This document shows, piece after piece, positions 35,593 through 64,000 of a DNA stretch of 64,000 nt. Numbering within the stretch: the stretch's first letter is position 1; every line of letters begins with the position of its first letter. The notes under the pieces were generated by a model, which saw nothing but the letters and a program-made list of their open reading frames with translations, was not told where the DNA came from and did not search any database. The stretch is from Balanoglossus misakiensis (Eukaryota; Animalia; Hemichordata): positions 8,569,124-8,633,123 of the forward strand of contig CM082596.2 of NCBI GenBank assembly GCA_040954595.2. The letters run 5' to 3'. Both the position numbers and the translations under genes were made by a program.

Positions 35593-36983
35593 CTAACACT
35601 CAACTCCGTACTTATCAAAATTTCTGAGAATCACTCCAAGTTGTAAGTGGAGCCTACCCATACCCACAGTCTGTAAGAGATCTCGGTCGGAACTACTGTA
35701 GACTAAATCAGGATTCCGTAATTGTGGTCCTCCGCCGACAAAGTTGTGTGAAATCTGTTCCCGGAACACTCCACTCGGCCTCCAAGTGACGCACTCAATG
35801 TCGTGCGTCCCAGGTGCTGTTGGCACATGACAGAAACCATAGCCGTACAATTCATTCCGTGCGTACGCATCTTGATGGTACACTTGAAAGTGGAATTTGG
35901 GCCAGCCTGAAAAATCACAAAAAAACACATATTAAAGGGATAAAGTCTCTCTTTCGCTACTCTTTTTCCACTAATTATGTTTAATACAAGTCTACAAGAC
36001 ACCATTTATGTTAATGTACATGTGGATATATATTGAATCAACATTCGACCACACACACCTTCCATTCCGCTTGTAGACACGAGAGTGAAAAAACTCACCA
36101 AATGAATAATCGTTCTCTACCATTTATTCAAGTTGGGCGAGTTTTTACTCTCATATCATACAAGTGGGATGGAAGTTGTGTTTGTTGAACGTTGATTCAC
36201 TATATATACACATGAACACTAACATAAATGGTGTCTTGTATCAAACATAATTCATGGAAAAAGGGCAGCGAGAGAGAGACTTTGTCCCTTTAATAATATG
36301 TGCGCAAAGCCTCGACAGTGGCAGATTCTCCAGTCTAATTAGGTATGTTGCAAATAATACATTATGTTTACTGTCCACAACCTGCCATCACGAAATATTA
36401 CTGACCATGACAACTATCTTACCTTGCAAACCGTTTGTCGATAGATGAATATCTATTGGATGTCCCCAAGCACAGAATTTCTCATTTTCTGGGATATCCA
36501 CCTGGGTCTGTCCTTCTTTCTGACCAGCCAGCAATTTCCATGCACCTCCTACAAAAATACAGCAAATTAAACGAATAATATAAATCACCCTTCAAGACAG
36601 GTGATCATGTGTTCTCCAGTGAATCTGAACCATCTCAAAGGCAAAGACATCCTTCTCAGACTTCAAAAGACCAGGTACGGTAGTATGTAATTTGTATAAC
36701 AAACAACAACAACAACAGATGGATAGACATCAATTTTTATAATTAGCCAGTTACAACTTACTAGTATGTTTTTCACTGAGAAATGGTGTTTCCTCTATGA
36801 TGTCAACATGATATAATAATAAATATGTCTAAATGTGTGAAATTGTCCAAAATTGCCATTTCATATGCAAAGTAGAATGAATGACACACACTTACCTGCA
36901 TGGACTCCCCATTTACAAAATAAACTGTTCTCGGGAAATCCACTCGCACCAACTATCTCCCCTATGATATGTACTTCAGCCAT
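35593..36983 (-). CDS. B9D2: B9 domain-containing protein 2 (ciliary transition zone, MKS complex); coding exons 36983-36896, 36548-36423, 35906-35593 (175 aa)
   Basis: [47 protein letters not shown]...[22 protein letters not shown]...[10 protein letters not shown] closely matches B9D2; 88+126+314=528 nt. Confidence 0.97.
35936..36289. mobile_element. Kolobok-type palindromic MITE copy in B9D2 intron
   Basis: ttaa|AGGGATAAAGTCTC...GACTTTGTCCCT|ttaa. Confidence 0.85.
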
Positions 36984-38954: not shown

Positions 38955-39322
38955 CACCCAGACATGGCTTTGATACTTTTCACATAATAGCCACCAGGAA
39001 AATTTCATTTGTCAATTGTCATGATTGTTTTTCAATAACAGGGAACACAGGAATATTCTTGTTGAAAAAAAGTTAAACAAAGAACAATATCACTTCTTGC
39101 TGTTGTCTGTCGGTGCTGTAAATAACTGTAAAAGAACACTACAATCGCGCCCCCACCCCATTTTTTTTTCCACAATCAAACCTGCCATTCCTTGCCATAC
39201 TTTCTAAGGGACTGGTCAGTTTATTCGGCCTGGGGGGGGGGGGTTCTATTTTGTGGTAACGTTATCAAAAAGTGACTGACCCCCATTGAAAATGGAAATG
39301 TGGGTATTGCCGGAGCGCCCTC

Positions 39323-40156
39323 TGTTATGTAGGTTAAGTTTGCTATTGTTTTCGTGACCATGTGTGTTTATCGTTTACTTTCGTAATTTGAATATTTACG
39401 TGACCAGGTGTGATGCATTCATTACTTTTCTCGTATAAAAGCGTGCACGTTGCCACGTTGTGCCGTCTCTGCTGATTTGGACTGGCCCGTGTGAGCTGTG
39501 TTCCGTTCCTCACCGGCTTGGAAGCTTTGCCGTATCTCGTGTTGTTGGTCTGGAAGTCGCGCCTAGAAGCCGTGCTGTCTCATATTGTACATGTACTGGT
39601 CTAGAAGTCGCTCCTAGAAGCCGTGCTGTCTCATGTGGAACTGGTCTGGAAGTCGCGCCTAGAAGCTGTGCTGTCTCGTGTGGAATTGGCCCGGAAGCCG
39701 TGCGGTCTACCGCTGGATTTTTGCCAGAGCGCTACTCGGACTGAACGTCGCCGTCGGAACTGTCGCGGTGTTGTCGCGTTCGTCGTAAGCTAGTGCTACG
39801 GAACATTGGACTTTAGTCTTTCATTTCCACACCTGGTCACATTTAACGTAGTCGCTTATTTGTGTGTGTGTTTTTCGGTGTAAAATCATTTTGACATTTA
39901 TCAATGCTTTAGTTGTATTAATTAAAAGTTTCCATAAGGGACCGTTCAGTTTTTACGGCAGGGGGGGGGGGGGCGGCAAGTTTGTGTCATCTGTTCTCAA
40001 AATCAGGCCGACCCCCCTTCACCCAGGACCAAAAAATGATGACCCCCCCTTTGACAGACCCAAAAATATGATGACCCCCCCCCCCCCACGCCCAAAACAT
40101 TCGCCGTCCTGATCCTATGTACACTGTATGCAATACAGGGAATGAGGCTCCTCACA
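39323..40156 (+). mobile_element. Solo-LTR-like element, copy 1
   Basis: cctc|TGTTATGTAG...CTCCTCACA; TATAAAA at ~39434; ATTAAA at 39921; internal ~45-bp repeats. Confidence 0.65.
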
Positions 40157-40161
40157 CCCTC

Positions 40162-40996
40162 TGTTATGTAGGTTAAGTTTGCTATTGTTTTCGTGACCAT
40201 GTGTGTTTATCGTTTACTTTCGTAATTTGAATATTTACGTGACCAGGTGTGATGCATTCATTACTTTTCTCGTATAAAAGCGTGCACGTTGCCACGTTGT
40301 GCCGTCTCTGCTGATTTGGACTGGCCCGTGTGAGCTGTGTTCCGTTCCTCACCGGCTTGGAAGCTTTGCCGTATCTCGTGTTGTTGGTCTGGAAGTCGCG
40401 CCTAGAAGCCGTGCTGTCTCATATTGTACATGTACTGGTCTAGAAGTCGCTCCTAGAAGCCGTGCTGTCTCATGTGGAACTGGTCTGGAAGTCGCGCCTA
40501 GAAGCTGTGCTGTCTCGTGTGGAATTGGCCCGGAAGCCGTGCGGTCTACCGCTGGATTTTTGCCAGAGCGCTACTCGGACTGAACGTCGCCGTCGGAACT
40601 GTCGCGGTGTTGTCGCGTTCGTCGTAAGCTAGTGCTACGGAACATTGGACTTTAGTCTTTCATTTCCACACCTGGTCACATTTAACGTAGTCGCTTATTT
40701 GTGTGTGTGTTTTTCGGTGTAAAATCATTTTGACATTTATCAATGCTTTAGTTGTATTAATTAAAAGTTTCCATAAGGGACCGTTCAGTTTTTACGGCAG
40801 GGGGGGGGGGGGGCGGCAAGTTTGTGTCATCTGTTCTCAAAATCAGGCCGACCCCCCTTCACCCAGGACCAAAAAATGATGACCCCCCCTTTGACAGACC
40901 CAAAAATATGATGACCCCCCCCCCCCCACGCCCAAAACATTCGCCGTCCTGATCCTATGTACACTGTATGCAATACAGGGAATGAGGCTCCTCACA
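40162..40996 (+). mobile_element. Solo-LTR-like element, copy 2 (tandem, virtually identical)
   Basis: TGTTATGTAG...CTCCTCACA|cctc; by eye identical to copy 1 except poly-G length; 4-bp CCTC flanks the pair. Confidence 0.65.
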
Positions 40997-41351
40997 CCTC
41001 AATTATATATTTCTTAAAGTATTATTGAAGTATATAATAGCATATCGTTCCAATCAAGAAATCTATGAACAAATTAAAATGACAAGTCAATACAATAGTT
41101 GCTAGAATTGGTAAAACAAGAAAAGTGGCGGGGGTGGGCGTGGGAGAAAATTTTGTAAAAATACGGTGCTCAAACTTGCATTTTAATGAACTCAAAAGCA
41201 AATTAACTCAATGTTAGGGAGGACAAATTTTAATTTTGCCACTCCACTCAAAGTAAGCATCGGGGGTGGGGTGGCAAGAAGTCTTCCCTGGTACACTAGA
41301 CAAACCAGTGAATAAATGCAATGTGGCGAAGAATGGAGGGGGTGGGTTTAA

Positions 41352-44940: not shown

Positions 44941-46114
44941 ATGGCAGATTTTGATTGGTTTAGGGAGTACCTTATAAGGCTGGCAGATGACATCGGAAAT
45001 GGTGAGTGTACATTTAATATTGTACATTTAACATTTGAATGTTTTTATCCCTGAGTGAATGGTGCTCTGGGACACTCATGAATGGATGTCTTAACCCATC
45101 AGTGTGCACGCCGTGGTTGTTCAGGGAATGTCTATAATTATGCAGTAGTTGCATCCACAGTCATCTCACATACAACCAGTGTTTCATCTAGACGATGGGG
45201 GGTATTAGATGGGGGGATTGACATGTTAACACCCCATAGCAATTTGTCTAGGGGGGACCAGTGCCCCTTAAAATGATGCCATTCACATGTTGGAGATATT
45301 ACAACCCCACTTGCCAGAGTGGAATCCCCCCAAAAAATTCTGGCAAAGGGGGACATATCCCCCCTGCTGATACCATCATGAGTGAAACACTGTACAACAG
45401 AGCTGATTTTATTCAAACTTGGCACAAAGACAATACATGTACATGATCATCCCATTTTCACTTTGAAATTTAAGACAGTGATCTACTGTACTTTTAACAT
45501 TTTTCTCAAAAGATTTCTTTCCAGAAAAATGTGTACGGTACTATAACTTTTTCTTTTTTCTGTTAAAGATGACCTGATTAAATTGGTAGATGGACTGGGT
45601 GCTATATTGAAACCTTCAATACCAACAGTTGTGAGGGAAGAAATTCTGAGAGAGAAACGTGCATACGTTTTACTTGACAAGTTGTGTAAATTTGGACATT
45701 TATCAAGAGACAAACCTGAAACACTTATTCAACTGTTGAAAAATGCCAGACTTTACGTGTTAGCACGGCATGTAGAAGTTCGATATGAGAAAGGATTTGA
45801 CAAAGACTATCCATATGATGAAGTGACAATTGAGTCTATGGTGAAAGTTGATAGCCCTCAAGAGATGAGTGACAGAAGTGGAGAGAGTTTCCACACATTC
45901 ACAACTGAGAGGACCTCAGCAGGACCACAGTTACCATCTACCAGTTGGCCAACATTCCCAACTGAGAGGACCTCAGCAGGACCACAGTTACCATCTCCCT
46001 CACAGCATCCAAGTCCCTCTAGAGAAGTGCAGCCAATGACATCAACTCGTCCCAAGATTCCAGCAGTGACAGCCACTCATTCCAAGACTCAAGTATACAC
46101 AACAGAATCTCATG
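44941..46114 (+). CDS. Death effector domain exons (44941-45001, 45569-46114) plus Ser/Thr/Pro linker
   Basis: MADFDWFREYLIRLADDIGNDDLIKLVDGL...EEILREKRAYVLLDKLCKFGHLSRDKPETLIQLLKNARLYVLARHVEVRY fits the six-helix DED pattern; 60-bp duplication TERTSAGPQLPS x2 at ~45904-45999. Confidence 0.7.
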
Positions 46115-49100
46115 GTAAGCGTATATCTCATGGTACCATACATTTTTATATACATTTTGTATTACACAAATACCCTTCAACCAGAATTAAATAATTATGA
46201 TTTTGAAAGAGATGAAATGATTGAACGAAATTGCATGTAGTCTATCTTCAGCTGGTCAAAGTGATTGTAACACATGTCATTTTGAGGTCATCTGACCCTT
46301 TGAAAAGTTATCAATTGTGCAGTTCAAATGCTCATGGTTAGATGCTGTCCTCATTAACGACACACCGTCCTACACAAGGCTTTGAATGATCTCATTTGTA
46401 ACCTCAAGGTAAAATGAAAATTTAATTTTGAAGAAAAACGGTGGTCATTGCAAGCATTTTGAGCAGTTGATCACTTACAATGCTTGTGGTAATTGAAATA
46501 TATTAGGAGTTAAACACACAGGTCAGAATGAATTCACCAATGTTTATCTTTCATATATACTTCAGGTTTTTCAGATGTTGGTGATGTTGCTGCTAGCAGT
46601 GCAGTTAGTTCAGCTGCAACACAGGCAGAGATGACGACAATGATGAAAGATCCAGAAGGTGAAACCACAAGTGTACGACACCACATCGACAGACATGCAC
46701 AATATTCCTTGACATCAAGACGACAGTCACCATCACCTAGGCAACAAACTGTTTTAGTAGGAAAGGACACTAATGAGAAAGGTAAAAAAATTACCAATCA
46801 GTCATTCCCAGGTGCAAGTATTGACAGCTACATGTTAAGTAATATGGAGAATTATCTTGCACCACCAGTGTGGGATGGGGATTTGTGGAAATGAAATTTT
46901 CACTACCAAATTTATGCACGATTTGAAAAAAAGGAAATTAAAGACAATGATCAAATTTCTTGCTTTTCTGTAACAAAATCTGCTTCTGTCATATCGCTGT
47001 GTTAGTGTGTGATTTCTTCACAAATAGGTTTACATTGCAAATCAATAAACACATCTTGTGTGCTCTTTTTTCAGATAAGGACCTCAAAAAGACCATCATA
47101 TTCCTGGCTGAAAAGTGGAATCGTGTGAAGGACACTGTATCTGCCCTCAACTGTCAACTTGCCAGCAGTGTAGCCGAAGACAGACAACGTAAAACATGCT
47201 GTGTTGTTTTGGAGGCAAGTGATGCAGAAAGGAAAGATGCAGCTGATTGTGGAGTTGAGTTGATACTTCCAAGTTTGAGAGACGAACTCGAGGATGCCTT
47301 TGGAAAAGATGAGCCCGTTCCAAAATGGATTCTTGTACCAGAGGTATACTTTACAACCCTTACAGAGTTACAAAATGTGGAATTCATTGTGGAACATGCC
47401 AAGCCTTCAGCAAAGCTCCTGGTTGCAAATGTTTTGAGGAAACGATATTTCAAAGATGCTAAGATTATCCTCATCAATCACACCATCCCATCAGTTGAAG
47501 TACAAGACAAACACATCAAATTTGCTGAGGAGGCATCTGCAGTTTTCTCTGTTGGACCAGATGTCTTTGAACATTACAAGAAATTCTACCAAACAAACGC
47601 AGTTCCTGTAAGACATGAGTTGTATCTTCCGAGACCAGAGAAAGAATTCTTTGATGTTAATGTGGATCAAATAGAAAAAACAAGTGACTTGAAACAAATC
47701 CTGACTGTGATAACTGATGAAGATGTGAAATCCCCACGATATAAAACACTGGCAGCTGAAGTTGGAAAAACAGCTAGTACATTCGACCAGATGCAAATGA
47801 CGGTTCCATTGTGGTGTGTACGTACTCCCCCGCAAGCTGATGTTGCTAACACAAATACTTTTCTTACAGTCAACTTAAATTGCCCCTACATAAAACCAAA
47901 CATTTATCCCTCATACGGCTCTCAAGATGATATTTACAGATATTTACGCCTGAGTAATGTCTGTATTATACCACCTGATGAGCCATTCAGGATGGAGGGA
48001 TTACGATCCATTGCTGCAGGACTACCTGTGTTAGTTCCGGAAAGAACTGCCTTAGCAACTTTCATGAACACATACCTAGGCCATGAAGCAAAGTATTTCC
48101 TGTATGACCCTTCCATTGATGGGAATTTGTCAGAACAGATCAATAAGATGTTGAACACAACACATGCAATACCCACGGCGACACGTTTGAAGAATATGTA
48201 TCTCAGTCACACAGAGATTACTGACAGTCATGAAAAGTTCAGAGCTTGTTTCAAAGAAGTTCAGAGTACACAGCCTGCACAAAGTAAGTATATTTCCTTT
48301 ACATTTACTGATCATAAGGTTAAAAGTCAGGCCATTGATTGAAAACAGTAGGATATCACAGATAAGCAAAATTTGAAGTTTCCTTCCAATATAATCTCAT
48401 TCATCTTAATTATTACAAGACTTCCTAGTATGAATTTTAGTCATTAGATTTTTTTGCTACTTTCTTCCTGTTCCAACACCTCAATTACCAGTTGAGGATG
48501 GAAAGACTATGGAGTGTAATTCATGCCAAAATTAGCACACAGCTTTTCGATGAGAGTATTCACTTTTCGATGAGAGTATTTGCGCTTTTCGATCAGAGTA
48601 TTCACTTTTCCATCAGAGCACACAGCTTTTCGATCAGAGTATTCGCTCTTTTCGATCAGAGTATTCACTTTTCCATCAGAGCACACAGCTTTTCGATCAG
48701 AGTTACCACCCCCACTTTACGATGAGGGCGCCCGCTTATTGATAAGAGCACCTAGCTTTTCGATTAGAACACCCAGCTTTTCTATCAGAGCGCTAAAGCT
48801 TTTCGATGAGGACGCACAGCTTTTCGATTAGAGTATGTCAGGTCTACTGGGGGTGAGCTTAGGGGGTCTTATAGCGGTGACCCGGAAGTTTAAAGTTTTG
48901 AAACTTTGACAGTGTGGACGCCCAATTTGTTTGCCGTCGACGCGTCGCGTCCTGGACGTAGCCCAGTGATCAAATGCACGGGTTGGATTTTACAAGAAAA
49001 TAACGTCATTTATTTTGCAAAGATCAACGTGAGTTCACTGCACAAAGTGGACCGTTGCCGACCCCCCCCCCCCCCCCCCCCCGTATCATCTCTTTCATCT

Positions 49101-52100
49101 TGTGTCCGGCCGCACTTGCGTTTGTGTGTCTCTGGGGACGCCAAGAATGCATATGCGTCTTTTTCTAATTTGAATATTTTGAATGGGTTAATTTAATGCT
49201 TACAAATTGATACATTTTAGGTCTGCTTCGACTGGAACGCGTCAAGTGTACATGTTGTTATGGAAGTTTATTTTAGAACCGCGTGGCTTGCCCTTCAAAA
49301 AAAAGCTTCTGTATTTAAGGTTGACAATTTACTTGCCGTGTATCATTATATAGTTGCTCCGGGCAATCGGGCGAAGCTTAATTTCGAACCCTGTTAAATA
49401 AATATACAAAACTCTTAAGCCCTAGTAACTAACTTTTAGCGATTTTTCAACTGTTTTTTTTCTTTAAGAATTTTTTGTTCTTCGCACAAACGATTCATGC
49501 CAAACTGCTACAGTGAATATACGCGCGCGCACAACGAAACCACAAAAGATCGAAACTTCAAAATGCGGCAGCAACTGACACTATTTCCTTAAATACCACA
49601 AGGCGAGGAGGCATGAATTGCAATTAAGATAATGAAGAAATTTCGACAATGATACTGTGTTGTGTGAGTTACATGTGTTTCTATATATACCTACTACTCT
49701 TACCCCCATCAGTGTTTGACCCTCGAAAGCTTACAGACACTACTGCTTTGTTTCAACTAATCCTTCGCCCTGTGAATATACTCGTACATTGACCTTTTGG
49801 GGCGGGATTCTTTTTTGGCGCGCAACCACTAGTACCAGGCCGCAGACCAGGAACTGGCGACCCGCCGTTTGTTTCCAACGCCAAATTTGATTCTAATGTT
49901 GAATTTCCGAGAAAACAATTTATCTGACCTGTAGTTTTCTTGGCTCGCTTACGTTTTAATTTGGAAACATTTAAAAAAATCATACGCCACCGTCTTGATG
50001 ACTGGCCCCTATTTTAATAATGGTATCGCCATGTTTCGCAAAGTTAGCTCAGATTCCATGAACTCGAGATTCTGTGCTATTTTCCTCAATCTACTGGCCG
50101 GTTTTGGTTCTCTGCTGAACCACTTCTCCGGCCTGGCGTCAACACGGTGAACGGTTCGTGTTTTGAAGCCGTTTCCCATGCACATGGTCAAAGTTTGACC
50201 TTCCGGTTTACTGATCTCCCTAGCATATTACTATAAATTTGATGGAAATTCCAGTGACGCGTTGTGACGTAGCCATGACGCGTTGTGACGTAGGCAAAAC
50301 GCCAGCGGGCCAAGTTGTAAAAACTCTTCAGTGAACTAGGGCGTCTGGGGCGCTCTTTAATCGAAAAGAGGGTGTTCTCATCGAAAAGTGAATACTGTAA
50401 TCGAAAAGCTGAGGTACTCTCATCGAAAAGAGGGGCGCTCTTTAATCGAAAAGAGGGTGTTCTCATCGAAAAGTGAATACTGTAATCGAAAAGCTGAGGT
50501 ACTCTCATCGAAAAGAGGGGCGCTCTTTAATCGAAAAGAGGGTGTTCTCATCGAAAAGTGAATACTGTAATCGAAAAGCTGAGGTACTCTCATCGAAAAG
50601 CGGGTGCTCTCATCGAAAAGCTTGGTGCTAATTTTGGCATGAATTACACTCCATAAAAGACTCCCTCAACTCGTGAAGATTTTGCAACTTTTGAAGGTGG
50701 CCAGCCTTCCCAGTCACTCTCACCCAAACCAGAAAACCTGGGTATAAGTAGAGTTTAAGCTTTAACTTTTCACTTGACTTTTATCAAAGATGTTGGCACC
50801 CTGTGTGATTAAGTTAACGACCATACCTCTGATGGTATGTACCCAATTATATCTATATGATAACCTCATATTGATAATGTTGACAGCTGACTTACAGTCC
50901 AGACTTTAATTAAAATTTGTCAACAATAACGATGTTGAGTGTAAATTTGCATAAGCTTTGTGTTGGGCATTACATCATGATTGGAGTAGAATAAAAAACT
51001 GCAGATGATACAAAAATAGTGTAAAATAACCACAAGATACGGTACTATCAGAACTGAAGTGGTAGAAATGGGTGCATATCAGATTTCATATGTTTGATTG
51101 ATAATTTGAAAACAACTAAAGAAAAGATATAACTACAGAAAAAGGTGTTTTCATGAACTAAAGAAATAAAAACTAGTGTGTTTTTGCTAGTAATTTGTAC
51201 ATCTTGATATTTTAATTAATTAATTGAGTTGAAGCGATTTATAGTGCAAATGTCAGTCATTTACATTTTTTTTTCTGTTTGCTAGTTACAAGTCCCCAAA
51301 CTGCTACCCATAGTGGAAGGAGTCCTTCAACTGATGAAGGTGTAGGAACTTTAGAAAATGCCTGTTCTCCTCAGCCACAAAAAAATGGTAAGTAGAGTTG
51401 GGATTACTTAGTTTAATATGCATTACGGTAGTTTCTGAAGTGAAAAAAATACACACCTATTTTCACTGAACTGCTCTTATTTAAAAATTTAAACTTTTCT
51501 CTTACAGGCGGTCCAGAATCTGCTGTTGTTTCAGATGAGAAACCAACAAGTGAAACTTGTAAATCAAAATGGATACGACGGAAAAGGCCTTTAATGCCAA
51601 GTAAGTTGTATTTTCTTCAGTTCTGCAGTAAGCTTCTTCATGATTTCACCACAAAATCTAGTTTTACAAAATCCATTCCTTTTTACATATTACATATTAT
51701 CCAATGATCCTGAACACCATAGGTTCTAGGGCAGTCACCCCCTGGACATTTCATACCCACAAAAAGCTTACTCTAATCCTACCCCATAACGCTGATTGAT
51801 TGAAATTTCCAGTTGGTGTGTTCAGTGGGTAACCAAATTATATTACGTCAACTGCTCTAAACACACGAGATAACTGAGCATTGAAATTAACATCAACTGA
51901 CGCTTCATGTTTCGTTTTACTATCATCTGCATTGATATTTCATTGCTATTTCCAGTAGGATAAATATATAATAATCTTTTAGGAGAAAACCTAAATTAAT
52001 GCTGAACTGTTTCACTGTTTATTCAACCCATAGCTGTTCAGTGTGAAGTAAATCTGGAATTTGAAGAAAAAAAGATGAAGATGGATATGGAGATGGAAAA

Positions 52101-55100
52101 GATGAGAGTGGAAACAGAACGCAAGAAAATGGAGCTTGAAACAGAACAGAAAAGGATGGACCGTGAAACAGAACACCGCAGGATAGAACTTGAAAAGTTG
52201 AAGGTGGAAAGGGAGAAAGAAAACAAGGCATTGGAGCTTGAAACAGAACAGAAGAGGATGGAGCTTGAAACAGAACACCGGAGGATAGAACTTAAAAAGT
52301 TGAAGGTGGAAAGGGAGAAAGAAAACAAGGCAATGGAGCTTGAAACAGAACAGAAAAAGATGGACCATGAAACAGAACACAAAAAGATGGACCATGAAAC
52401 AGAACACAAAAGGATGGAGCATGAAAGAGAAAAGATGAAGATGGAACTTGAAAAGGAGAAAATGGAGCAGAAACAGATGTTCATAAATCAAATAACAGCG
52501 ATTTATGAACTTCAGATAAAGAAAATCATGGACAGAGATGACCCAGATCTGATAGAACAGTTAGATAAAGCCTATGAGAAATATAAAGCAAGACTTGATG
52601 GAGTTGTGCAAGGCTCTTTATGGTTCTTACTAAGTTTCCTTTCGGAGGAAGACATTGATTATTTCTGGCAGAAATACAAAGCTGGAGAAGTTGATGAAAT
52701 GCTGAGTGGTATCCTAATAACATCCGATATGAGATCCTTAGCAGAGAAAGCTGGATGTGTTGTCAGAGTCAGAATGAAGATAGATGAAAAGGAGTATGAG
52801 ACTGTCAAACACATACTTCATGGTGAGTTATAGTTTTCACAACTATCATTATTGAATATCTTGAAGCACCAAATGAATTAGCAGACCATCCTACATAAGT
52901 TTTGCATGCTCTCACGGCCAAATGTATGCAATTAAAATGTAAATTTATTTTTGGAAGAATTTGGTGAAGTTGGAAATACACCTTTTTATTTCAGCGAGGT
53001 CTGCCAATAAAGACACAGCTGATGGTAACAAACAAAACCAGGTAAATAACAATCTGATTTCTAAGAGTAAACGGATAAGCACAAAGAGGTTTATGGAATT
53101 GATCCATACTGTTTGCTGTAAAAAGTTGTATGTCATATCAACACAGCTATATATTACAATATTGTGAAAACTTAATTGACAAATATTGGCCCCAAATATT
53201 CGATGAACTTCAACACTTTAAAATCATTCTCAAATTGCATGGTAACTGTAGCTATATTTTCTTAGGTGGCCATATACATTTAACACTGACACCCAGTAAA
53301 ATTTTAAAACCGCAAGGTCACATCCCCCAAATAAACAAATTGTTCATCATGATCATGAGTTCATTGACCAGAATATGTGACTGTGTGCCAGACACATTTC
53401 ACACAAAACCCAAACCTTTGTGGAATGTTGTTGTTACCAGGGTTTTATGCTTTTGGTGTGTTTTGGGGATATTTCAGGTACATCTAACAGACAGTGAATC
53501 TGGTAAGGGAACAACGGCTTCGCAGAAATATAATGACCCACAGGTAAGTAACTTTTGAACTGAAGTTAAAGCGCATAGCTCGTCTCACATGCATTTTCCA
53601 ACTGTAGCCGCTGGTTACAGATGTTTAGTGATCAGTCAATCCCATAAGGCAATGCTCTGTCCTAACAACAGAGAAGATGGCGGTGACCATAATCTGTGTC
53701 GGAGATCGGGAAAAGACACTTAGCTTGGGTGAAAATTTTAGGAGGGACAAAACCAGAATCTACTTATATGGTGCGCATGAAATATGGAAGGAAGCGAAGG
53801 CAGTCCACTATTTGAATTCATCGAACGGAAAATTTGCTGGGAAGTTACGTGCATGTGCATGAGACGAGCTACGCGCTTTAAGTCAGCTGGTTGCACAAGT
53901 GAAAAATAATCTGATCGAGAGAAAGTTTTTAACATCAAATTGTAACACCAACAGTTGCTTCAGAATAAAGTATAGTGAGATTTTTCGTGATGCCATTGTA
54001 CTATTTTTGATGGACAAAATACTTTGTGTATTGGGGATATTTCAGGTACATCTAACGGTCAGTGAAGCTGGTAAGGGAACAACGGCTTGGCAGGAATATA
54101 ATGACTCACAGGTAAGTGAGTTTTGAGCTGAATTCATAGGCAGCTGCTTGCTGCTGTAGTGAAAATATAGTCTGTCTGTCATGAGCGAGATGAAAACTTT
54201 AAATTGTAAGTCACACAAGTACGTGTTTCAGAATAATGTCATCATTCCATTGCACTCCTTTTTTATCTTGGTGAAGAGTATTCACTATGTTTAACCATTG
54301 TACCGGTATGATGTCATCTTGTTATCCACGGTGACGTCACAGTTTAATTGTGATTTTTCTATAATATTACTACTGTTTATGATTTCATATTGAGAATATT
54401 TTGATTAAACAAGTGTTGCCTGTTGATTGTTACAGGTTCTCATCAATGCCGCAAAGCATGGTGACATTGCAAAGATCCAGTCGCTGATAGCTGATGGATA
54501 TGATGTCAATGCAAGGGGTAAATTATACATGGACTATCGCCTGATCCCTGTAAGTGTTTATATTGGCCTTTTGTACAACAACAATCACACACAAGGATAA
54601 CTACACATATGAAACAGCAAAGAATTTGAATTCTAACATCAAATTTTCAAGACTATCTGTGCATCATATTCGGCCCATTATTGTACTCACCATCGTCAAG
54701 CAAAGATTGTTAAAACGTTCCATTTATTTATATTGGCCTAGCTTTTGTACACTCTGCATATCTGTGACTGCAGCTCACTGTAATGAAATTGCTAGAGGAT
54801 TTTATTCAAACGATCAAGTGTTGACACATATGAAATGTATCAGATTTGTGATGTCATTTTTATTCCAACCTTTAAACATCTTCATTCCAGTATTTAACAG
54901 CATTGCATGCAGCATCCTGGAAAGGTGGATTGGATACTATGAGTGTGTTGATTTCCCATGGTTCAGATGTCAATGCGAAGACTAGGGTACATAAACTAAC
55001 AAGTTATTACTTCATTAAGGACAAAGAAAATGGCTTCATGTGTATTTATATCTTTATGATCTCTGGATAATTTTGTTATTGACAATTATATAAATTACAA

Positions 55101-58100
55101 AACATTTGTTTTTGGGTCCCATTGGTATGTATCATGGGACCTTATGGGATCGGTTACGTCTGTATGTATGGATGTATGCCAGTATGGATGGATGGATGGA
55201 TGGATGGATGGATGGATGGATGTATGTCCGTCCACATCAAAAACTTGCAAACCGCTGCGTGTATCACCTTGATATTTGGTGTGCTGATGCAGGCTGGGCT
55301 GTAGATGGGAGTTTGTTCAAATGAAGTTGTCATTGTCAAAAATATGCAAATTAGCTGGAAAAATGTGAATTTGGGCAAAACTCAGTAACTCAAGAACTAC
55401 TGGTCAGATTGCTTTGCAAAGTGGTGTGTATTTACTTTATTGAGTTGTTTTAATTAGGCAGGAACTCTCCTGCTGTGTTTCATATAAACACAGCAAATTC
55501 CTGATGATTACATAACTGGCTAAGTTTTAAAAAGGCCAGCTGTTCTACCGTTAAAGTCATATTTGTAAACGCAGTTTTTTTACCAATGTTGCAAGTTTCT
55601 TATTGCTACAATGTCCGTGAAATCGGGTGCGTCTAATAATATGGCCTTATGCCAAGTTTCAAAACAAACTTTTTCTGTTCTCAGGAGAAGACATCGCCAA
55701 AAATCAGGTCAAAAACAAAGTACTTCCCAGTATGCAATCATACACTTCTACTCCTGCTGCATGACTTGTGTTCTTTCATTTTGCTCAAAAGTCTGAAGCC
55801 TATTCCTCATACAGTTCAAAAATCGTTTTACTCATACAAAGTTTGAGTTTTTGATATTTTCAAGTGTCATGTCTTGTCCATATATTCACCCCATAATGTA
55901 ATCTGAGACCTAGCGACTACTTCCACATAAACAATGTTGCAAATTAGTTACATGCCCATTGATAAAATGATACATGATGCACTGTCTGGGTCAACTAAGT
56001 CTGGGTCAACACTACTGAAGCCATGTGTCAATGGGTGACAAGGCATCAAATGTCAAAGTGACAGCCATTGAAAACTTCAACCAATCAGAGTAAATGATTT
56101 TAGAGGATAATTAATGAGAGGTCAACTACATGTCAAAGTGTATTCATATGTTAATTTCATGCATGTTTCATGGTTGTTGCGTTGACCAGCTGAGCAATTA
56201 TCAGCAACTGAGACAATGGAAAAGACATAGACCCATCAATTATGGGCAGTTGAGACAATGGAAAAGACATAGATCAGCAGTTGAGACAATGGCAAAGAAT
56301 ATCACCGTTAGTCTTTGGGCACTGAATGAAAGGGCGCATGTCCTGAGCAACACTGAAAAGGTTGCGTTCACAAATATGTACTTCTCCGTTTTTCCAAATC
56401 TTTGAATTTATGCCATTGCCACCTGCTCAGAAAGAGGGTGCGTTTATAATTATGGTTGCGTCTACAAATATGACTTTAACGGTATTTAGTGTATGTACAG
56501 TACAATGCCATTGGCAGCTTATGGGTCAGTCAGGGTTTGCCCATTGATCTCTCGCTACATGTACCCACGGTTACTAGAAGAAGACGGTTAGGAAACTCTA
56601 TTGTTAGGAAGGTGTGAACGAGGTGTTAGCTAGGAGAGTACATGTCCGAACCGCTATGTGGGGTTGTATTGGGGAACGTAGCTAATTTTTGAACCCCTTC
56701 ATCTGCCCTTTTTCGTCAGAGTACAGCGCCACTTTTTTTTGTACGAGTTCCATATAGGCTTATGGAGTGCACGGTCATAGTCTGTTGGGCTTGCGACACC
56801 CTACCATTGTTTCTTGGGTGGTTAAGTAAAAGTCCGGATTCAAAAAGCGTTGAATTTTGAACCCCTAGAATTCAACCCTGATGGTCGCATTTCTGTTTTT
56901 TTTAATATATTTAGATATTTTACACCTTTTTGTATTGCATGGGCTATTTCGTTTATTCCAATTGGAATATTTCGTTGAGATTGCATACCCATTTCGATAC
57001 AGTCGTTAACATTATCGATATAGCCTTTGGCGGCCATCTTGTTTGTTTTGGTTCGCATCGAATCTCTAGGGCACAGTCAAGACAAAGAATGTATGGCTTC
57101 ATCATGTCCTTGAAAGTTCAAAATTGTCATAAATGTGCTGTGACTTTATAAATTATCCACTCTCTGTTCTGTTTTCCTCAAATCTGGTGGTATACGTACT
57201 GTGCGTGCAAGCAATTCCGTAAACATGAGTATGGTTTGCTTTGGATTGTAGAGGTAATGACGTCATTTTGACCGAGCGGTCAGTTATTCTGTCTGTTTAT
57301 TCGTATGGCCAGGCTCGTTAGCACCTGATATCTTTCGTTTACACTAAGTGTTTACCGAGGCGAGCATCTAACAATGGAGAAAAAATAGTTTCCTAACCGT
57401 CTTCTTCTAGTAACCGTGATGTACCGTATGTGTGTGTGTGTGTATCTGTCTGTATATGGCCATGTACTCCGGTGTAGACTTTTTCTTGTGTAATCCCTCA
57501 ATGGGACCACCATGTCCTTGACGCGATTTTTAGAGTCTTCAATTAACACCATGTGTGGTTTGGTTAATTCTAATCAACATACAAACATTTGCTTGTCAGT
57601 TTGTTTTGTTTGTATGGTGAAAGAGACCTGACAGTACATTTTAATTTTTGTGACATTGTTCTCATGCTCCTCCTTCATTACTTACAGAATGGAGACACAC
57701 CTTTGCACTTTGCAGCAATATATGATGAAGGCAGTGAGAGATTGTTATTGGAACACAAAGCTGATGCTAACATACAAAACAAGGTAAATACAAACCTGAT
57801 TTCTACAGGTTATTGCTACTCAACATACAAACATTTGTTTGTTTGTTCTGTTTATTTATTTAAGGAGATCTCACAGTACATTTCAATTTTTGTGACATTG
57901 TTCTCATGCTCCTCCTTCATTACTTACAGCATGGAGACACACCTTTGCACTATGCAGCAGCAAGGTATGGTGATGAAGGCCGTGTCAGATTGTTATTGGA
58001 ATACAAAGCTGATGCTAACATACAAAACAAGGTAAATTCCACCATGACTTCTACAGGGTAATTCTAATCAACAAACAAACATGTATTTGTTTGTTTGTTT

Positions 58101-61100
58101 GTTTGTTTGTTTGTTTAAGGAAATCTCACAGTACATTTCAATTTTTGTGACATTGTTGTCATGCTCCTCCTTCATTACTTACAGGGTGGAGACACACCTT
58201 TGCACTCTGCAGCAAGGTCTGGTGATGAAGGCTGTGTCAGATTGTTATTGGAACACAAAGCTGATGCTAACATACAAAACAAGGTAAATACAAACCTGAC
58301 TTCTATAGGTTAATTCTAATCAACAAACAAACATGTATTTGTTTGTTTGTTTAAGGAAGTACATTTCAATTTTTGTGACATTGTTCTCATGCTCCTCCTT
58401 CATTACTTACAGAATGGAGACACACCTTTGCACTTTGCAGCAGAGGATGGCGATGAAAGCTGTGTCAGATTGTTATTGGAACACAAAGCTGATGCTAACA
58501 TACAAAACAAGGTAAATGCAAACCTGATTTCTACAGGTTATTGCTACTCAACATACAAACATTTGTTTGTTTGTTCTGTTTATTTATTTAAGGAGATCTC
58601 ACAGTACATTTCAATTTTTGTGACATTGTTCTCATGCTCCTCCTTCATTACTTACAGAATGGAGACACACCTTTGCACTTTGTAGCAAGGTATTGCGATG
58701 GAGGCCGTGTCAGATTGTTATTGGAACACAAAGCTGATGCTAACATTCATAACAAGGTAAATACAAACCTGACTTCTATAGGTTAATTCTAATCAACAAA
58801 CAAACATGTATTTGTTTGTTTGTTTGTTTGTTTGTTTAAGGAAACCTCACAGTACATTTCAATTTTTGTGACATTGTTCTCATGCTCCTCCTTCATTACT
58901 TACAGCATGGAGACACACCTTTGCACTATGCAGCAGCAAGGTATGGTGATGAAGGCCGTGTCAGATTGTTATTGGAATACAAAGCTGATGCTAACATACA
59001 AAACAAGGTAAATTCCACCATGACTTCTACAGGGTAATTCTAATCAACAAACAAACATGTATTTGTTTGTTTGTTTGTTTGTTTGATTGTTTGTTTGTTT
59101 AAGGAAATCTCACAGTACATTTCAATTTTTGTGACATTGTTGTCATGCTCCTCCTTCATTACTTACAGGGTGGAGACACACCTTTGCACTCTGCAGCAAG
59201 GTCTGGTGATGAAGGCTGTGTCAGATTGTTATTGGAACACAAAGCTGATGCTAACATACAAAACAAGGTAAATACAAACCTGACTTCTATAGGTTAATTC
59301 TAATCAACAAACAAACATGTATTTGTTTGTTTGTTTAAGGAAGTACATTTCAATTTTTGTGACATTGTTCTCATGCTCCTCCTTCATTACTTACAGAATG
59401 GAGACACACCTTTGCACTTTGCAGCAGAGGATGGCGATGAAAGCTGTGTCAGATTGTTATTGGAACACAAAGCTGATGCTAACATACAAAACAAGGTAAA
59501 TACAAACCTGATTTCTACAGGTTATTGCTACTCAACATACAAACATTTGTTTGTTTGTTCTGTTTATTTATTTAAGGAGATCTCACAGTACATTTCAATT
59601 TTTGTGACATTGTTCTCATGCTCCTCCTTCATTACTTACAGAACGGAGACACACCTTTGCACATTGTTGCAGCAAGGTATGGCGATGAAGGCCGTGTCAG
59701 ATTGTTATTGGAACACAAAGCTGATGCTAACATACAAAACAAGGTAAATACAAACCTGACTTCTATAGGTTAATTCTAATCAACAAACAAACAAACATGT
59801 ACGTGTTTGTTTGTTTGTTTAAGGAAACCTCACATTTATACATTTCAATTTTTGTGACATTGTTCTCATGCTCCTCCTTCATTACTTACAGAATGGAGAC
59901 ACACCTTTGCACTTTGCAGCAGCAAGGTTTGGTGGTATCGGTAAAGGCTGTGTCAGATTGTTATTGGAACACAAAGCTGATGCTAACATACAAAACAAGG
60001 TAAATACAAACCTGACTTCTACAGGTTATTGCTACTCAACATACCAACATTTGTTTGTTTGTTCTGTTTATTTATTTAAGGAGATCTCACAGTACATTTC
60101 AATTTTTGTGACATTGTTCTCATGCTCCTCCTTCATTACTTACAGAATGGAGACACACCTTTGCACTTTGTAGCAAGGGATGGCGATGAAGGCCGTGTCA
60201 GATTGTTATTGGAACACAAAGCTGATGCTAACATTCATAACAAGATAAATACAAACCTGACTTCTATAGGTTAATTCTAATCAACAAACAAACATGTATT
60301 TGTTTGTTTGTTTGTTTAAGGAAACCTCACAGTACATTTCAATTTTTGTGACATTGTTCTCATGCTCCTCCTTCATTACTTACAGAATGGAGACACACCT
60401 TTGAACTTTGCAGCAAGGTATTGTGATGAAGGCTGTGTCAGATTGTTATTGGAACACAAAGCTGATGCTAACATTCATAACAAGGTAAATACAAACCTGA
60501 CTTCTATAGGTTAATTCTAATCAACAAACATGTATTTGTTTGTTTGTTTGTTTAAGGAAACCTCACAGTACATTTCAATTTTTGTGACATTGTTCTCATG
60601 CTCCTCCTTCATTACTTACAGAATGGAGACACACCTTTGCACTTTGCAGCAGAGGATGGCCATGAAAGCTGTGTCAGATTGTTATTGGAACACAAAGCTG
60701 ATGCTAACATACAACACAAGGTAAATACAAACCTGACTTCTACAGGTTAATTGCCTTTACTAGGTCAAAGGTAAAGGACACACTGTTCACATACAAATTC
60801 AAGCATGCACAAAATCAAATCACATCTTGTTTGGCATGAACTGGAGGTGCTTTAATAACCAGTAACAACAAGAAAAACTGAACAATACTGATTTAACAAA
60901 GCACCCCACCTTTCTGTAGAAACAGGCAAGACAGAAAGGCAAAGTACAAAATACCATGATGAGGAAAATCATCAAATGGCAAAGTCTGAAACTGAACAGT
61001 ATAAAAGTCAGCTAATAGGGGGGGGGGGGGGGGAAACGACGTCAGGGTGGGAGAAAATGTGACTGGTAACAAAATGGCGTTCTGCAAGGCATCATGGGAG

Positions 61101-63913
61101 ATAAAGTCAAACCGCGGGAGCTGCCACTAGAGGGCTCTCCCTATCATAACAGCAATTAACCAAATTTTCAGCAAGAGACTTGCTATCAAATTTTACACAA
61201 TTGCCTTTACTAGGTCAAAGGTAAAGGACACACTGTTCACATACAAATTCAAGCATGCACAAAATCAAATCACATCTTGTTTGGCATGAACTGGAGGTGC
61301 TTTAATAACCAGTAACAACAAGAAAAACTGAACAATACTGATTTAACAAAGCACCCCACCAAAGCAGAGCTACCCAAACAAGATGTGAGAAAGGAGAAAA
61401 AGAAAGAAAACTCAACTACTCTAAACTATTACAAACAAACCACCACTGCCTCCACCCTTTTTAGACAAATGAAAGGAATGGAGGAGAAACTGGCTAGGGC
61501 TACTGGGAGAGAGCCCATGATTGTAGTAATGTAGAAGCGCTCAGTGGCAGGAATGGCAAGAAAGTCTTTGTATACTATAGAGCGCCAGTCCCCTTGCAAA
61601 CGAATCAACGAGTCTGATACTCCTGCCAGGGAAGCTGTGGTGGCCCCCCTTCACTTGAGGCTGTGAAAACTGAAGCCTAGAGGGTCAAGGCCAATGGCGG
61701 TGACTAGCGAACGAAAACGCTAGGTTAAAACAGGCTGAGTGAGTGGTTTAAATGTGCTACGGTGGTAAATTACAAATGCTGGGGAGGAGGGTGAGGCTGG
61801 AAGCAACTCAATCATATTGCATTATGCAATATGCGAGAACTGGGCAAACAGCACTGTTTGGCAGCAAAGCCAGAGGGTTGATGTATCTGTGTCCATTGGC
61901 AGCGAGTGTGATCCTGTCAATAACACTAGTGTCATCAGTGTCTGATAAATGGGTGCATGCAGAAGCAACGGTGTCCAAAGTGTCCATGTCCTGTACAGCT
62001 GCAACTGAGGCTGAATTAGAAAACAAGTGTGAACTGAGTGGCTGCAATGGAGGCGGATTTGTCTGTGACATAGCGAATTCCATCTGAGGGAGAAGTGACG
62101 TACGATTCGATGGCTGCAAGTGTGGCGGAATAGTGTGCACCTGTTCTAACATAGGTTGGCTCGCCCACTGTGGGTTGTGAAGACTGTGTAATGGTGTCTG
62201 TTGTGCTGACAATCAAAGGTTGGTAACCATGGCTAGGGTAGTGTAGATTGCGCGTCCAGTGGATCCATCTGTGTGAAATCTAGCTGAATGCAGAGACGAT
62301 GGTTTGGTAGGGGTCTCAACTGTGGAGCTCGCAATAGAGCGATCTGCAACTGCGGCGGAAAGTCAGTTGGGATGTAGGTGTCGGTGAGTCAGCCTGTGGG
62401 TTGCTTTTTTGGTTTGTATGGACATTCACTTGGTGGGTGTGACAGTTGAAGGTCGCGGATACGCAAACAGAAACGACAGATGTGATGTTCCATTATCCCT
62501 TCCTGGTTGTTGTGGTCATTGTTGAACTTACATTTTCCAAGCTGGTAGTCTGCACAGTATCTGGGGTTTGTCTTGTATTTGTAGCTGGTGTTGGCTCTCA
62601 TAGGGGCTTTGGTCAACTTGATATGTAAACATCTGGCTTTCTCCTTGGTGAAATCATATTGCCATGTGTTTTCCCCAGTCTCGATAGAACGCAGGACTGC
62701 ACAATGGAGCTCCCTGACATCGGCCCATTGGTAAATTTCTGCTAGGTGTAATAGTTCTATAAGGTGATCAGTTCTGGCAAGTCTGGTGGCAAGTGGCTCT
62801 ACATGGTGGATGATGTATAGTTCTCCACGTACTAGTGCTGGCATTGACAATGTGGCATATGATTGGTCATCAATGCTGCTGTCGGACTTGTGGGCATATT
62901 CGTGTGGCCATGGAACTTGGTAACGCACTTGCTCGCTGGATCTGCGAGCCACACCAGACTTGGGCTTTTTGCGATTGTGGAGTTTACGGAAGGTTTTGTA
63001 GTGCTGCTTACCTCCCTGCTCGAGCTGCGTGGCAGAGTCTGAGTCTGTACAGGATGACGAAGATGCTGAGGAATCTGTGTCAAACATCTTGGTATGGTGC
63101 GAGAGCAGCATTATGGCGAAGAGATGTAATGGTGGGCTTGTCCTGAGAATCCTCCATACCTGTAGGCGGTTTTGCCTTCAACTTTTCATTTCTCGCTAGT
63201 TCTCTCTTTAATTCTATTTCAATCTCCAGCTCTTCATTTTCCTTCTTAATCGCCTCTAGCATTTGCTTTTTAGGGCTGATAATGTCTCGATTACCTTCGC
63301 TGGTGTCCGGCTTAGACCATTCTGTCTTGATTGTGTCCTTTGTATTTTTCAAGTGGTCAGATGGTGTCACACTTGAAGTGCTGGCGTGCGTTTGAGGCGA
63401 CGATTTGTGGTCCATCTCGAAGGAGTTGTCCTTGTTTTCTCTACAGAGGTGTCCGGAAGGTCCTTTGTGGTGTTTCAAGTAGATAAGACAGGTTCTGCAA
63501 AGTCTTTGCGGCCTAGATGACATCGGATTGCAAATTGAGATTGCTCAGAAAATGTGACTGGTAACAAAATGGCGTTCTGCAAGGCATCATGGGAGATAAA
63601 GTCAAACCGCGGGAGCTGCCACTAGAGGGCTCTCCCTATCATAACAGCAATTAACCAAATTTTCAGCAAGAGACTTGCTATCAAATTTTACACAATTAAT
63701 TCTAATCAACAAACAAACATACATGTATGTGTTTGTTTGTTTGTTTAAGGAAACCTCACATTACATTTCAATTTTTGTGACATTGTTCTCATGCTCCTCC
63801 TTCATTACTTACAGAATGGAGACACACCTTTGCACTTTGCACCAAGGGATGGCGATGAAGGCCGTGTCAGATTGTTATTGGAACACAAAGCTGATGCTAA
63901 CATACAAAACAAG
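44941..63913 (+). CDS. Multidomain putative innate-immune/cell-death protein: DED, GT-B glycosyltransferase-like, coiled coil, TRADD-N-like, ankyrin repeats (3' end outside window). Exons 44941-45001, 45569-46114, 46566-46781, 47075-48283, 51286-51387, 51508-51600, 52034-52822, 52995-53041, 53478-53543, 54046-54111, 54436-54549, then the ankyrin exons
   Basis: All exons bounded by AG/GT with compatible phases (phase 1 through 52995, then phase 0), giving a continuous stop-free frame; domain calls from motif recognition. Confidence 0.8.
47075..48283 (+). CDS. GT-B fold glycosyltransferase-like (GT4/Glycos_transf_1) exon
   Basis: AKIILINHTIP; ASAVFSVGPDVFEHY; SQDDIYRYLRLSNVCIIPPDEPFRMEGLRSIAAGLPVLV resembles the GT4 EPFGLVxLEAxAxGxPVI motif. 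Confidence 0.75.
48508..50655. mobile_element. Non-autonomous DNA transposon with 6-bp TSD and TAYGG ends (IS3EU-like), subterminal repeat arrays
   Basis: aaagac|TATGGAGTGTAATTCATGCCAAAATTAGCAC...GTGCTAATTTTGGCATGAATTACACTCCATA|aaagac; TTTTCGAT arrays 48543-48830 and inverted ATCGAAAA arrays 50360-50620. Confidence 0.8.
52034..52822 (+). CDS. Exon with charged coiled-coil repeats followed by a TRADD-N-like domain
   Basis: Repeats of MELETEQKR/MDHETEHKK; then LDGVVQGSLWFLLSFLSEEDIDYFWQKYKAGEVDEMLSGILIT, matching the invertebrate TRADD-N pattern (GS-hydrophobic strand...W..Y..G). Confidence 0.7.
53478..54111 (+). repeat. Duplicated 66-bp exon with flanking intron (53478-53543, 54046-54111)
   Basis: VHLTDSESGKGTTASQKYNDPQ vs VHLTVSEAGKGTTAWQEYNDSQ; shared TTGGGGATATTTCAG acceptor. 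Confidence 0.85.
53570..53877. mobile_element. Kolobok-type MITE, different family
   Basis: ttaa|AGCGCATAGCTCGTCTCA...TGAGACGAGCTACGCGCT|ttaa. Confidence 0.8.
54436..54549 (+). CDS. N-capping ankyrin exon
   Basis: VLINAAKHGDIAKIQSLIADGYDVNARG...; tacag acceptor, gtaagt donor, phase 0. Confidence 0.8.
55114..57526 (+). mobile_element. Helentron-associated non-autonomous element (HINE), same termini family as 21319-25357
   Basis: TTTTT|GGGTCCCATTGG...CATGGGACC, (GGAT)n at 55185-55222, 3' AATGGGACC...GTCCTTGACGCGA|TTTTT; 55114-55370 is the reverse complement of ~25100-25357. Confidence 0.7.
56566..57418. mobile_element. Non-autonomous element with 7-bp TSD and CA..TG TIRs (P-element-like), nested in the HINE
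   Basis: atgtacc|CACGGTTACTAGAAGAAGACGGTTAGGAAACT...AGTTTCCTAACCGTCTTCTTCTAGTAACCGTG|atgtacc. Confidence 0.8.
57560..60750 (+). repeat. Tandem array of ~245-bp units, each one ankyrin exon plus intron (13 units). Exons 57688-57783, 57930-58031, 58185-58283, 58413-58511, 58658-58756, 58906-59007, 59169-59267, 59397-59495, 59642-59743, 59892-59999, 60146-60244, 60386-60484, 60622-60720
   Basis: Each unit CTTCATTACTTACAG|xxxGGAGACACACCTTTG...AAG|GTAAAT encodes xGDTPLHxAAxxGDEGxVRLLLEHKADANIQNK; all phase 0, 96-108 nt. Confidence 0.95.
61525..61885 (-). pseudogene. Tyrosine recombinase C-terminal remnant
   Basis: CPVLAY; GLDPLGFSFHSLK*RGATTASLAGVSDSLIRLQGDWRSIVYKDF corresponds to the HSxRxGxAT...GxWxS..Y catalytic motifs, with a stop and frameshifts. 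Confidence 0.8.
62389..63523 (-). pseudogene. Frameshifted gag-like ORF1 of the DIRS/Ngaro element (63523-63080 and 63111-62389)
   Basis: N-terminal CRTC..HHKGPSGHLC knuckle; WPHEY...YATLSMPALVRGEL...YQWADVRELH..VLRSIETGENTW; C-terminal CADYQLGKC...H...HICRFC...HPPSECP zinc fingers. Confidence 0.75.
63815..63913 (+). CDS. 14th ankyrin exon; array continues beyond window
   Basis: NGDTPLHFAPRDGDEGRVRLLLEHKADANIQNK with the same flanking intron sequence. Confidence 0.9.
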
Positions 63914-64000
63914 GTAAATACAAACCTGACTTCTATAGGTTAATTCTAATCAACAAACAAACAAACATGTGATTGTTTGTTTGTTTAAGGAAACCTCACA

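Follow-up and report, generated by a model that had tools for sequence, protein, structure and literature searches.

Proteins that join a GT4 glycosyltransferase domain to a TRADD-N domain and a tail of repeats are known from several marine invertebrates. In this context, Kaur et al. (2021) predicted an immune role for the GT4-TRADD-N-LRR proteins of hemichordates, lancelets and cnidarians (PMC8195603), and the source data of their Fig. 4 list proteins combining GT4, TRADD-N and ankyrin repeats in Saccoglossus (XP_006822589.1), Branchiostoma and Acropora. In corals, GT1-ankyrin genes that lack NACHT are likewise described as clustered and expanded (PMC12314368). Shuffling of repeats is known from other organisms: Dyrka et al. 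(2014) reported repeat-number polymorphism and concave-face selection for the ankyrin repeats of Podospora NLRs (PMC4986451), and brown-algal receptors use symmetric exons of one repeat each that recombine (2012, PMC3341825; Teng et al. 2024, PMC11378527). Here we analyse a stretch of 64,000 nucleotides (the window) from the acorn worm Balanoglossus misakiensis (contig CM082596.2, positions 8,569,124 to 8,633,123), which ends in an array of near-identical exons encoding one ankyrin repeat apiece, downstream of a GT4 exon. We consider it somewhat probable that this array is the variable recognition part of a GT4/TRADD-N-type immune signalling protein, diversified in the germline and with selected changes at the end of helix 1.

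The array runs on the forward strand from 57688 to 63913. Its 14 exons are all of phase 0-0 and 96 to 108 nt long, with four lengths in all, each a multiple of three, and none holds a stop codon. Cassettes 1 to 13 (57688-60720) start at 57688, 57930, 58185, 58413, 58658, 58906, 59169, 59397, 59642, 59892, 60146, 60386 and 60622; cassette 14 occupies 63815-63913 and its following intron leaves the window, so that the array extends past position 64000 and has at least 14 units. The acceptor AG precedes every exon and the donor GT follows 13 of the 14, the donor of exon 11 being AT at 60245. All three exons scanned with Pfam, of the 14, score above the Ank cut-off. Exon and intron together form units of 228-263 bp, found by Tandem Repeats Finder as 13 copies of period 245, and the introns vary from 129 to 161 nt, driven by a variable microsatellite. 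An earlier annotation made from the letters alone (the sequence-only reading) had described 14 phase-0, one-ankyrin exons in units of about 245 bp with in-frame differences in exon length, and this description is confirmed.

The 14 exons comprise 11 distinct sequences, exons 2-3-4 reappearing as 6-7-8. Mean DNA identity between units is 92% (minimum 88%), and mean column identity of the protein is 83% over the 11 distinct repeats, plus the three exact duplicates. With this the array reaches, as a borderline case at the protein level, the likeness of about 85% over at least 100 residues that is typical of fungal NLRs. These receptors, with ANK, TPR or WD repeats, share a likeness of about 85% or more, concerted evolution and variable sites in the inner helix and hairpin (PMC4986451). 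They differ in that each unit of the window includes an intron, the word 'exon' being absent from PMC4986451, and in that repeat-number polymorphism between individuals has been demonstrated for them, whereas the array is known from one assembly and one sample. The symmetric one-repeat exons link it to the brown-algal receptors, which also have inactivated exons and concave-face selection, the latter only suggested for the array (PMC3341825, PMC11378527). Those systems are LRR or TPR receptors of an alga, with documented alternative splicing (PMC11378527), and near-identical introns are absent from the portions of both descriptions available here. The sequence-only reading had invoked Ectocarpus as a precedent; the precedent holds for exons of a single repeat, for inactive exons within introns and for recombination, while the 'conserved introns' it also ascribed to that system do not occur as a phrase in the Ectocarpus paper.

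To locate the variation, derived alleles were counted per site over the 14 units in an aligned unit of 198 nt, and variable positions were assigned by standard ankyrin repeat numbering. Out of 49 alleles, 22 fall in the 30 nt of repeat positions 10-19 (hereafter the block) and 11 in the rest of the exon (69 bases). In the intron, the first 46 bases, which fall into several types, carry 14, and the last 53, before the exon, carry two; the introns had been called almost invariant, which is true of their last 53 nt and untrue of the first 46 and the microsatellite. In a scan with intervals of 30 nt, the concentration of 22 of the 49 unit alleles in one interval has a permutation p of 5e-5, and that of 22 of the 33 exon alleles a p of 3e-4, so the clustering of exon differences noticed in the sequence-only reading goes beyond chance. 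The indels of the exons are all in frame, and those of the introns are not.

A comparison with designed ankyrin repeat proteins (DARPins) suggests itself, and the classic set of positions randomised in them includes position 14. ANK-N5C randomises positions 2, 3, 5, 10, 13 and 33, located in the beta-turn and helix 1 (PMC4308713). The array shares with these libraries a fixed scaffold and variation at the randomised positions 3, 10, 13 and 33 (PMC4308713). Positions 3, 10, 13, 14 and 33 carry 15 of the 33 exon alleles (p=0.007), and library-randomised positions are in general enriched in variation (p=0.007-0.03). Unlike in the libraries, positions 2 and 5 are invariant among the window cassettes, much of the variation and the indels lie at positions 14-20, and binding is a prediction. 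The DARPin analogy is therefore partial, with 2 and 5 fixed and 14 alleles at positions 11-12 and 15-20, and the earlier claim that the differences sit at ligand-contact positions stands for 3, 10, 13, 14 and 33 only.

Following up on the origin of the units, we found that the block of exons 2-3-4 with introns equals that of exons 6-7-8 at 727 of 728 aligned bases, apart from one 8-base microsatellite gap. Among 16 informative sites, 28 of the 120 site pairs show all four combinations and are incompatible, and the minimum number of recombination events (Rm) points to at least four recombination intervals, some inside the block. Recurrent mutation could account for part of the incompatible pairs. 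Because of the three-unit duplication and the incompatible pairs, the view that unequal crossover or gene conversion reshaped the array is supported; the sequence-only reading had proposed these processes, and the duplication, the 28 pairs and the Rm bear it out. Recombination among the exons, together with an inactivated exon (11, with no GT), is what is also seen in receptors of the brown-algal type.

Three contig sets containing the region, all from one sample, extend the pattern. When 368 and 407 contigs were aligned to a single 238-nt unit and variants at 3% or above were listed, 22 of the 23 variants were exonic and 16 lay in positions 9-19, one row being merely a change peculiar to the reference exon. 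No variant appeared in the 77 upstream intron bases, in a pile-up that leaves variants near contig ends unlisted and would clip divergent introns. Among the 22 exon variants, 13 match window alleles, and nine pile-up variants are absent from the window cassettes. A 126-nt contig with 16 differences has a depth of 1473, compared with 41-68 for exact flank pieces in the same run. Since the contigs repeat the pattern and add nine variants, many more cassettes are likely; their number in the genome may be dozens to hundreds, depth not being a copy number. The same caution applies to the TRADD-N and ankyrin cap exons (see below), which are covered by several differing contigs. An assembly artefact was considered as the source of the array and rejected, both for the many in-frame differences between units and for the 13 contig variants that equal window alleles; the number and order of units are as assembled, and among the contigs of the sample no piece spans the whole array.

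Each unit also allows its exon to be compared with its own intron, as the sequence-only reading had proposed. Nonsynonymous change in the block reaches a rate of 0.86 per site; the introns have 0.16, which makes a 5.3-fold excess (p=2e-6), and even the most variable intron part (0.30) is exceeded 2.8-fold (p=0.002). In contrast, the synonymous rate of the block is not raised over the 5' intron (0.43 vs 0.30, p=0.39). Under the GY94 codon model, applied to the 11 distinct exons with inserted codons dropped, omega (dN/dS) comes to about 4.2 (p=0.016 for the test against 1) in the block, which was chosen after viewing the data, and to 1.8 for the whole exon (p=0.22). The proposed comparison thus gives a nonsynonymous rate above the introns and a dN/dS by counting that stays at p=0.10-0.25.

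Upstream of the array, 14 exon pieces from 44941 onwards, all on the forward strand, join with the cassettes into an open model of 1634 codons once an element in exon 5 is set aside; AG/GT sites mark all its boundaries save the exon 11 donor. Predicted exon 1 (44941-45001) opens with ATG in an open frame with a GT donor and would begin a death-fold-like N-terminus. Exon 2 (45569-46114) holds a stretch resembling a death-effector domain (DED), followed by a low-complexity linker; the likeness is a lead only, the top Atlas match being DED at 0.89, below its bar of 0.9, and no DED was found there by Pfam, by a profile from the DEDs of eight relatives or by BLASTP against P0002. After a linker in exon 3 (46566-46781, AG/GT, phase 1-1), exon 4 (47075-48283) encodes a GT4-conflict glycosyltransferase domain (PF20706, E 3.8e-23, 82.5 bits against a cut-off of 26). 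Its closest proteins are four of Ptychodera flava (52-59%), followed by another acorn worm, Glandiceps (43%), and then lancelets, an order that suggests an enteropneust host. In what we take to be the nucleotide-sugar motif of GT4, the second acidic residue is replaced by R in the window and by W in two P. flava relatives, and is E in two coral proteins. Exon 5 (96 nt, phase 1-1) is split over 48492-50741 by an element of 2.15 kb at about 48508-50661, which has long terminal inverted repeats, a flanking duplication of 6-8 bp and internal tandem repeats of 20, 42 and 85 bp at both ends. Reading from the exon 5 acceptor into the element hits a stop, and the exon is skippable in frame.

Two small linker exons (51286-51387 and 51508-51600, AG/GT, phase 1-1) lie inside the stretch aligned to P0001 and lead to an exon with a coiled coil and a TRADD-N-like domain (52034-52822, 51% to P0001, phase-1 donor). 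The assignment comes from Atlas (0.93), with TRADD-like_N on 45-58% of the members of its top three clusters. Pfam found none on the window piece, and PF20694 was found in 4 of the 26 scanned TRADD-N-region relatives. A model of 86 residues, a truncated piece, aligned to TRADD-N (1f2h) with Z 2.9 and a root-mean-square deviation of 4.6 over 76 residues, at rank 19; with the same truncated model, Foldseek gave no match at E of 0.001 or below and a wide VIA structure search nothing at Z of 5 or above. The region search with P0001 yielded nothing beyond P0001 itself and P0002. Within this exon, 52096-52453 holds internal tandem repeats with periods of 27, 54 and 102 bp that are absent from the P. 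flava relatives. Together, the GT4-conflict and TRADD-N-like domains fit the immune-receptor context suggested in the sequence-only reading.

Like the GT4 + TRADD-N proteins of the DEDD2 clade (PMC8195603), the predicted protein would have GT4 before a TRADD-N-like domain and a variable repeat tail. Such proteins typically, though not always, carry an N-terminal death-fold domain, and lineage-specific expansion also marks them. The available text of PMC8195603 deals with how domains are combined and does not go into cassettes at the exon level or homogenised introns. Unlike the ankyrins here, the tails of the closest P. flava relatives consist of LRRs. The coral (Montipora) proteins P0037, P0039, P0053 and P0092 combine GT4, a TRADD-N-like domain and similar internal ankyrin repeats; in two of the three scored, positions 2 and 3 are the most variable, unlike in the window array. 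From the end of the TRADD-N exon onwards the tails of the relatives diverge into LRR, NHL, TPR or unassigned sequence. In 18 of 21 aligned relatives (4 of 25 rows, truncated, out of register or divergent, were left out), the residue that follows the TRADD-N-like block is compatible with a phase-1 intron after G, and for this reason the end of this exon, at 52822, appears to be a place where tails are swapped. Whereas fungal NLRs have a central NACHT or NB-ARC, within the window there is no room and no Pfam match for either between the TRADD-N exon and the cap exon. Three small predicted bridge exons lie there instead (52995-53041, phase 1 to 0; 53478-53543; 54046-54111), with AG/GT sites and an open frame, inferred and without homology support. 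The two 66-nt phase-0 exons among them are duplicated with their flanks (53457-53564 and 54025-54132, 91% over 108 nt); contig joints at the duplicated exon suggest other arrangements in other copies.

The ankyrin part itself begins with a cap exon (54436-54549) and a divergent first repeat (54891-54986, Pfam Ank), both on the forward strand. Among 157 fetched proteins, their best match is a P. flava ankyrin-Roc-COR protein (64 bits vs 42 for the next; 51% over 67 columns), to which they align at residues 12-73 of XP_070546714 and XP_070546715, its very N-terminus. The consensus of its repeats resembles that of the window cassettes, with comparable positions variable in both (Spearman 0.55, p=8e-4); unlike in the cassettes, likeness averages only 53% among its 14 scored repeats, and it has no GT4/TRADD-N head. 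When the P. flava protein was compared with the window by tblastn, only the ankyrin exons matched. An ankyrin-Roc-COR gene is the probable source from which the ankyrin module was captured, and a Roc-COR domain may lie downstream, beyond the window. A ROCO link as in brown algae is possible for this array too. When the cassettes were searched as a profile (7989 candidates scored), no protein of near-identical repeats appeared among the best 120 of 4837 matches, where the best local identities were mostly 40-60%. The top match, Prymnesium parvum P0034, is a further ankyrin array of high conservation, its 13 scored repeats being 78% alike and varying at positions 5, 10, 13 and 19.

Taken as a recognition part, the array would work as follows. 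Near-identical flanks, namely the last 53 intron bases with the exon start and the helix-2 half, would let units misalign in the germline, whereupon crossover or conversion could add, remove or overwrite whole units with the frame kept, and other loci with the same cassette could serve as donors. At positions 3 and 10-19, substitutions and indels that keep the frame would alter the groove and the loop between helix 1 and helix 2, and hence the ligand, and selection probably retains amino-acid changes at the end of helix 1. The cassette exons would be spliced onto the upstream head. Ligand binding would then cluster the death-fold-like and TRADD-N-like adaptor domains and trigger signalling towards defence or cell death, while the GT4 domain would act as effector, or as scaffold if it is inactive.

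Several observations weigh against this explanation. The element sits within exon 5, the donor after exon 11 is lost, helix 1 of exon 14 holds a proline, and exon 1 of the array combines a deletion with a charged residue at position 20; in exon 12 a conserved histidine is changed. Even if the family is active, this gene copy may be decaying. Outside the library-randomised set, 14 of the 33 alleles fall at positions 11-12 and 15-20. Among the relatives scanned, 7 for GT4 and 26 for the TRADD-N region, Pfam found ankyrin in none of the 33. Omega for the rest of the exon is about 0.8 (p=0.80), with a rate equal to the intron rate, and purifying selection on the scaffold is therefore not evident. 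Counts in the block are 19 nonsynonymous to 3 synonymous (22.5 to 1.5 if multi-hit codons are counted alternatively), with p=0.10-0.25 in counting tests. The pile-up has 18 nonsynonymous and 4 synonymous variants (18/22), near the neutral 75-79%, and its sample is possibly the source of the assembly and so not independent. Because the block was picked post hoc and recombination inflates tree-based omega, positive selection on it is suggested, not proven. A neutral, minisatellite-like expansion in a decaying gene would draw on the same facts, with units alike because they are young and the block a local hot spot of mutation or slippage, or an old divergent patch spread by conversion, with no selected binding. 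The element, the AT donor, the helix-breaking changes, the non-significant counting tests and the scaffold omega all suit it, as does the uninformative lack of stops (chance 0.26 for 33 changes), and new repeats are reported generally to diverge fast under relaxed selection (PMC5120217). We nevertheless regard it as quite unlikely, given that in the block the nonsynonymous rate and not the synonymous one exceeds the 5' intron, that exon indels keep the frame and intron indels do not, that the contigs vary in the same block, and that variation is enriched at library-randomised positions.

The other two alternatives concern gene structure and the time at which diversity arises. A GT4/TRADD-N gene may end at or near 52822, in which case the ankyrin exons would belong to a second gene, of ankyrin-Roc-COR (ROCO) type, and form its N-terminal sensor, with the GTPase beyond the window; the diversification would be the same as in our preferred explanation. 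The extreme N-terminal place of the cap and first repeat in XP_070546714/5 and the similarly varying repeats of that protein speak for this arrangement, as do the stop met by 52833 on reading through the TRADD-N exon and the three bridging exons without homology support. We hold it to be rather unlikely, as the bridging exons supply the required change from phase 1 to 0 with canonical sites, a separate start exon for the ankyrin part was not identified, the donor position after TRADD-N looks conserved among relatives, and fusions of TRADD-N with ankyrins are listed for Saccoglossus (PMC8195603). A generator acting within the individual, by regulated skipping of symmetric exons or by somatic rearrangement, would instead draw many combinations from one locus. 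Any phase 0-0 cassette, with its identical acceptor region, could be skipped in frame, exon 11 without its GT donor would be skipped or mis-spliced, and in brown algae as many as nine splice forms, differing in their sets of LRR exons, are described for ROCO genes (PMC11378527). This is very unlikely in our judgement: no observation requires it, since germline events account for the mosaic; in the P. flava ankyrin-Roc-COR gene, what distinguishes the two RefSeq isoforms is the Roc region and not the repeats; and somatic recombination is unreported even in brown algae, as far as the available text goes (PMC11378527). Recombination in the germline at the recognition end of a GT4/TRADD-N-type protein stays our preferred explanation.

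Intron 13 has been enlarged by a retroelement-like insert of 2.95 kb on the reverse strand (60749-63697) with split direct repeats, 60749-60910 equalling 61199-61360 and 61052-61202 equalling 63547-63697, both at 100% (162 and 151 bp). Its two minus-strand open reading frames have no Pfam match, and a broken piece resembles by eye the C-terminus of a tyrosine recombinase; we take it to be a DIRS/Ngaro-type element, which looks internally deleted. On the 5' side of the array gene lie an ARID4-like gene with ARID and Tudor-knot domains (about 18000-29800, forward) and a B9-C2 ciliary gene (35596-36900, reverse), and the array gene therefore adjoins housekeeping genes there. An intron of the ARID4-like gene contains a 239-bp tandem repeat of 4.8 copies (21375-22536), and an immunoglobulin-domain exon is found at 5977-6336 (forward). 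A tandem duplication of 841 bp with 99.9% identity (39318-40998) is either recent or an assembly artefact. A palindromic MITE-like element of about 360 bp occurs in seven full or partial copies, at 2611, 12505, 16932, 20123, 31375, 35930 and 43988.

The domain architecture is thus known from marine invertebrates and the shuffling of repeats from fungi and brown algae. In the open-access full-text literature, hypervariable exons of one ankyrin each with homogenised introns were not found reported for any animal, and the union of both features in an animal ankyrin array is without precedent found there. The array bears on the question of how invertebrate deuterostomes diversify immune receptors. 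The intron and exon of one unit form a built-in neutral control, and the invariant flanks offer one primer pair for all cassettes, which makes germline, somatic and splicing diversity directly accessible. The array would further reveal at which sites of an ankyrin repeat natural selection brings about variation while the scaffold stays fixed, loop indels at positions 11-17 among them. A bolder idea, which we regard as doubtful, is that acorn worms keep a genome-wide library of hundreds of interchangeable single-ankyrin exons that recombine between loci and, with exon skipping in addition (somatic rearrangement being less likely), would give each animal a combinatorial repertoire of receptors inside the cell. 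If this were true, the library would feed death-fold, TRADD-N and glycosyltransferase outputs, and would be a deuterostome diversity generator that uses neither immunoglobulin domains nor LRRs.

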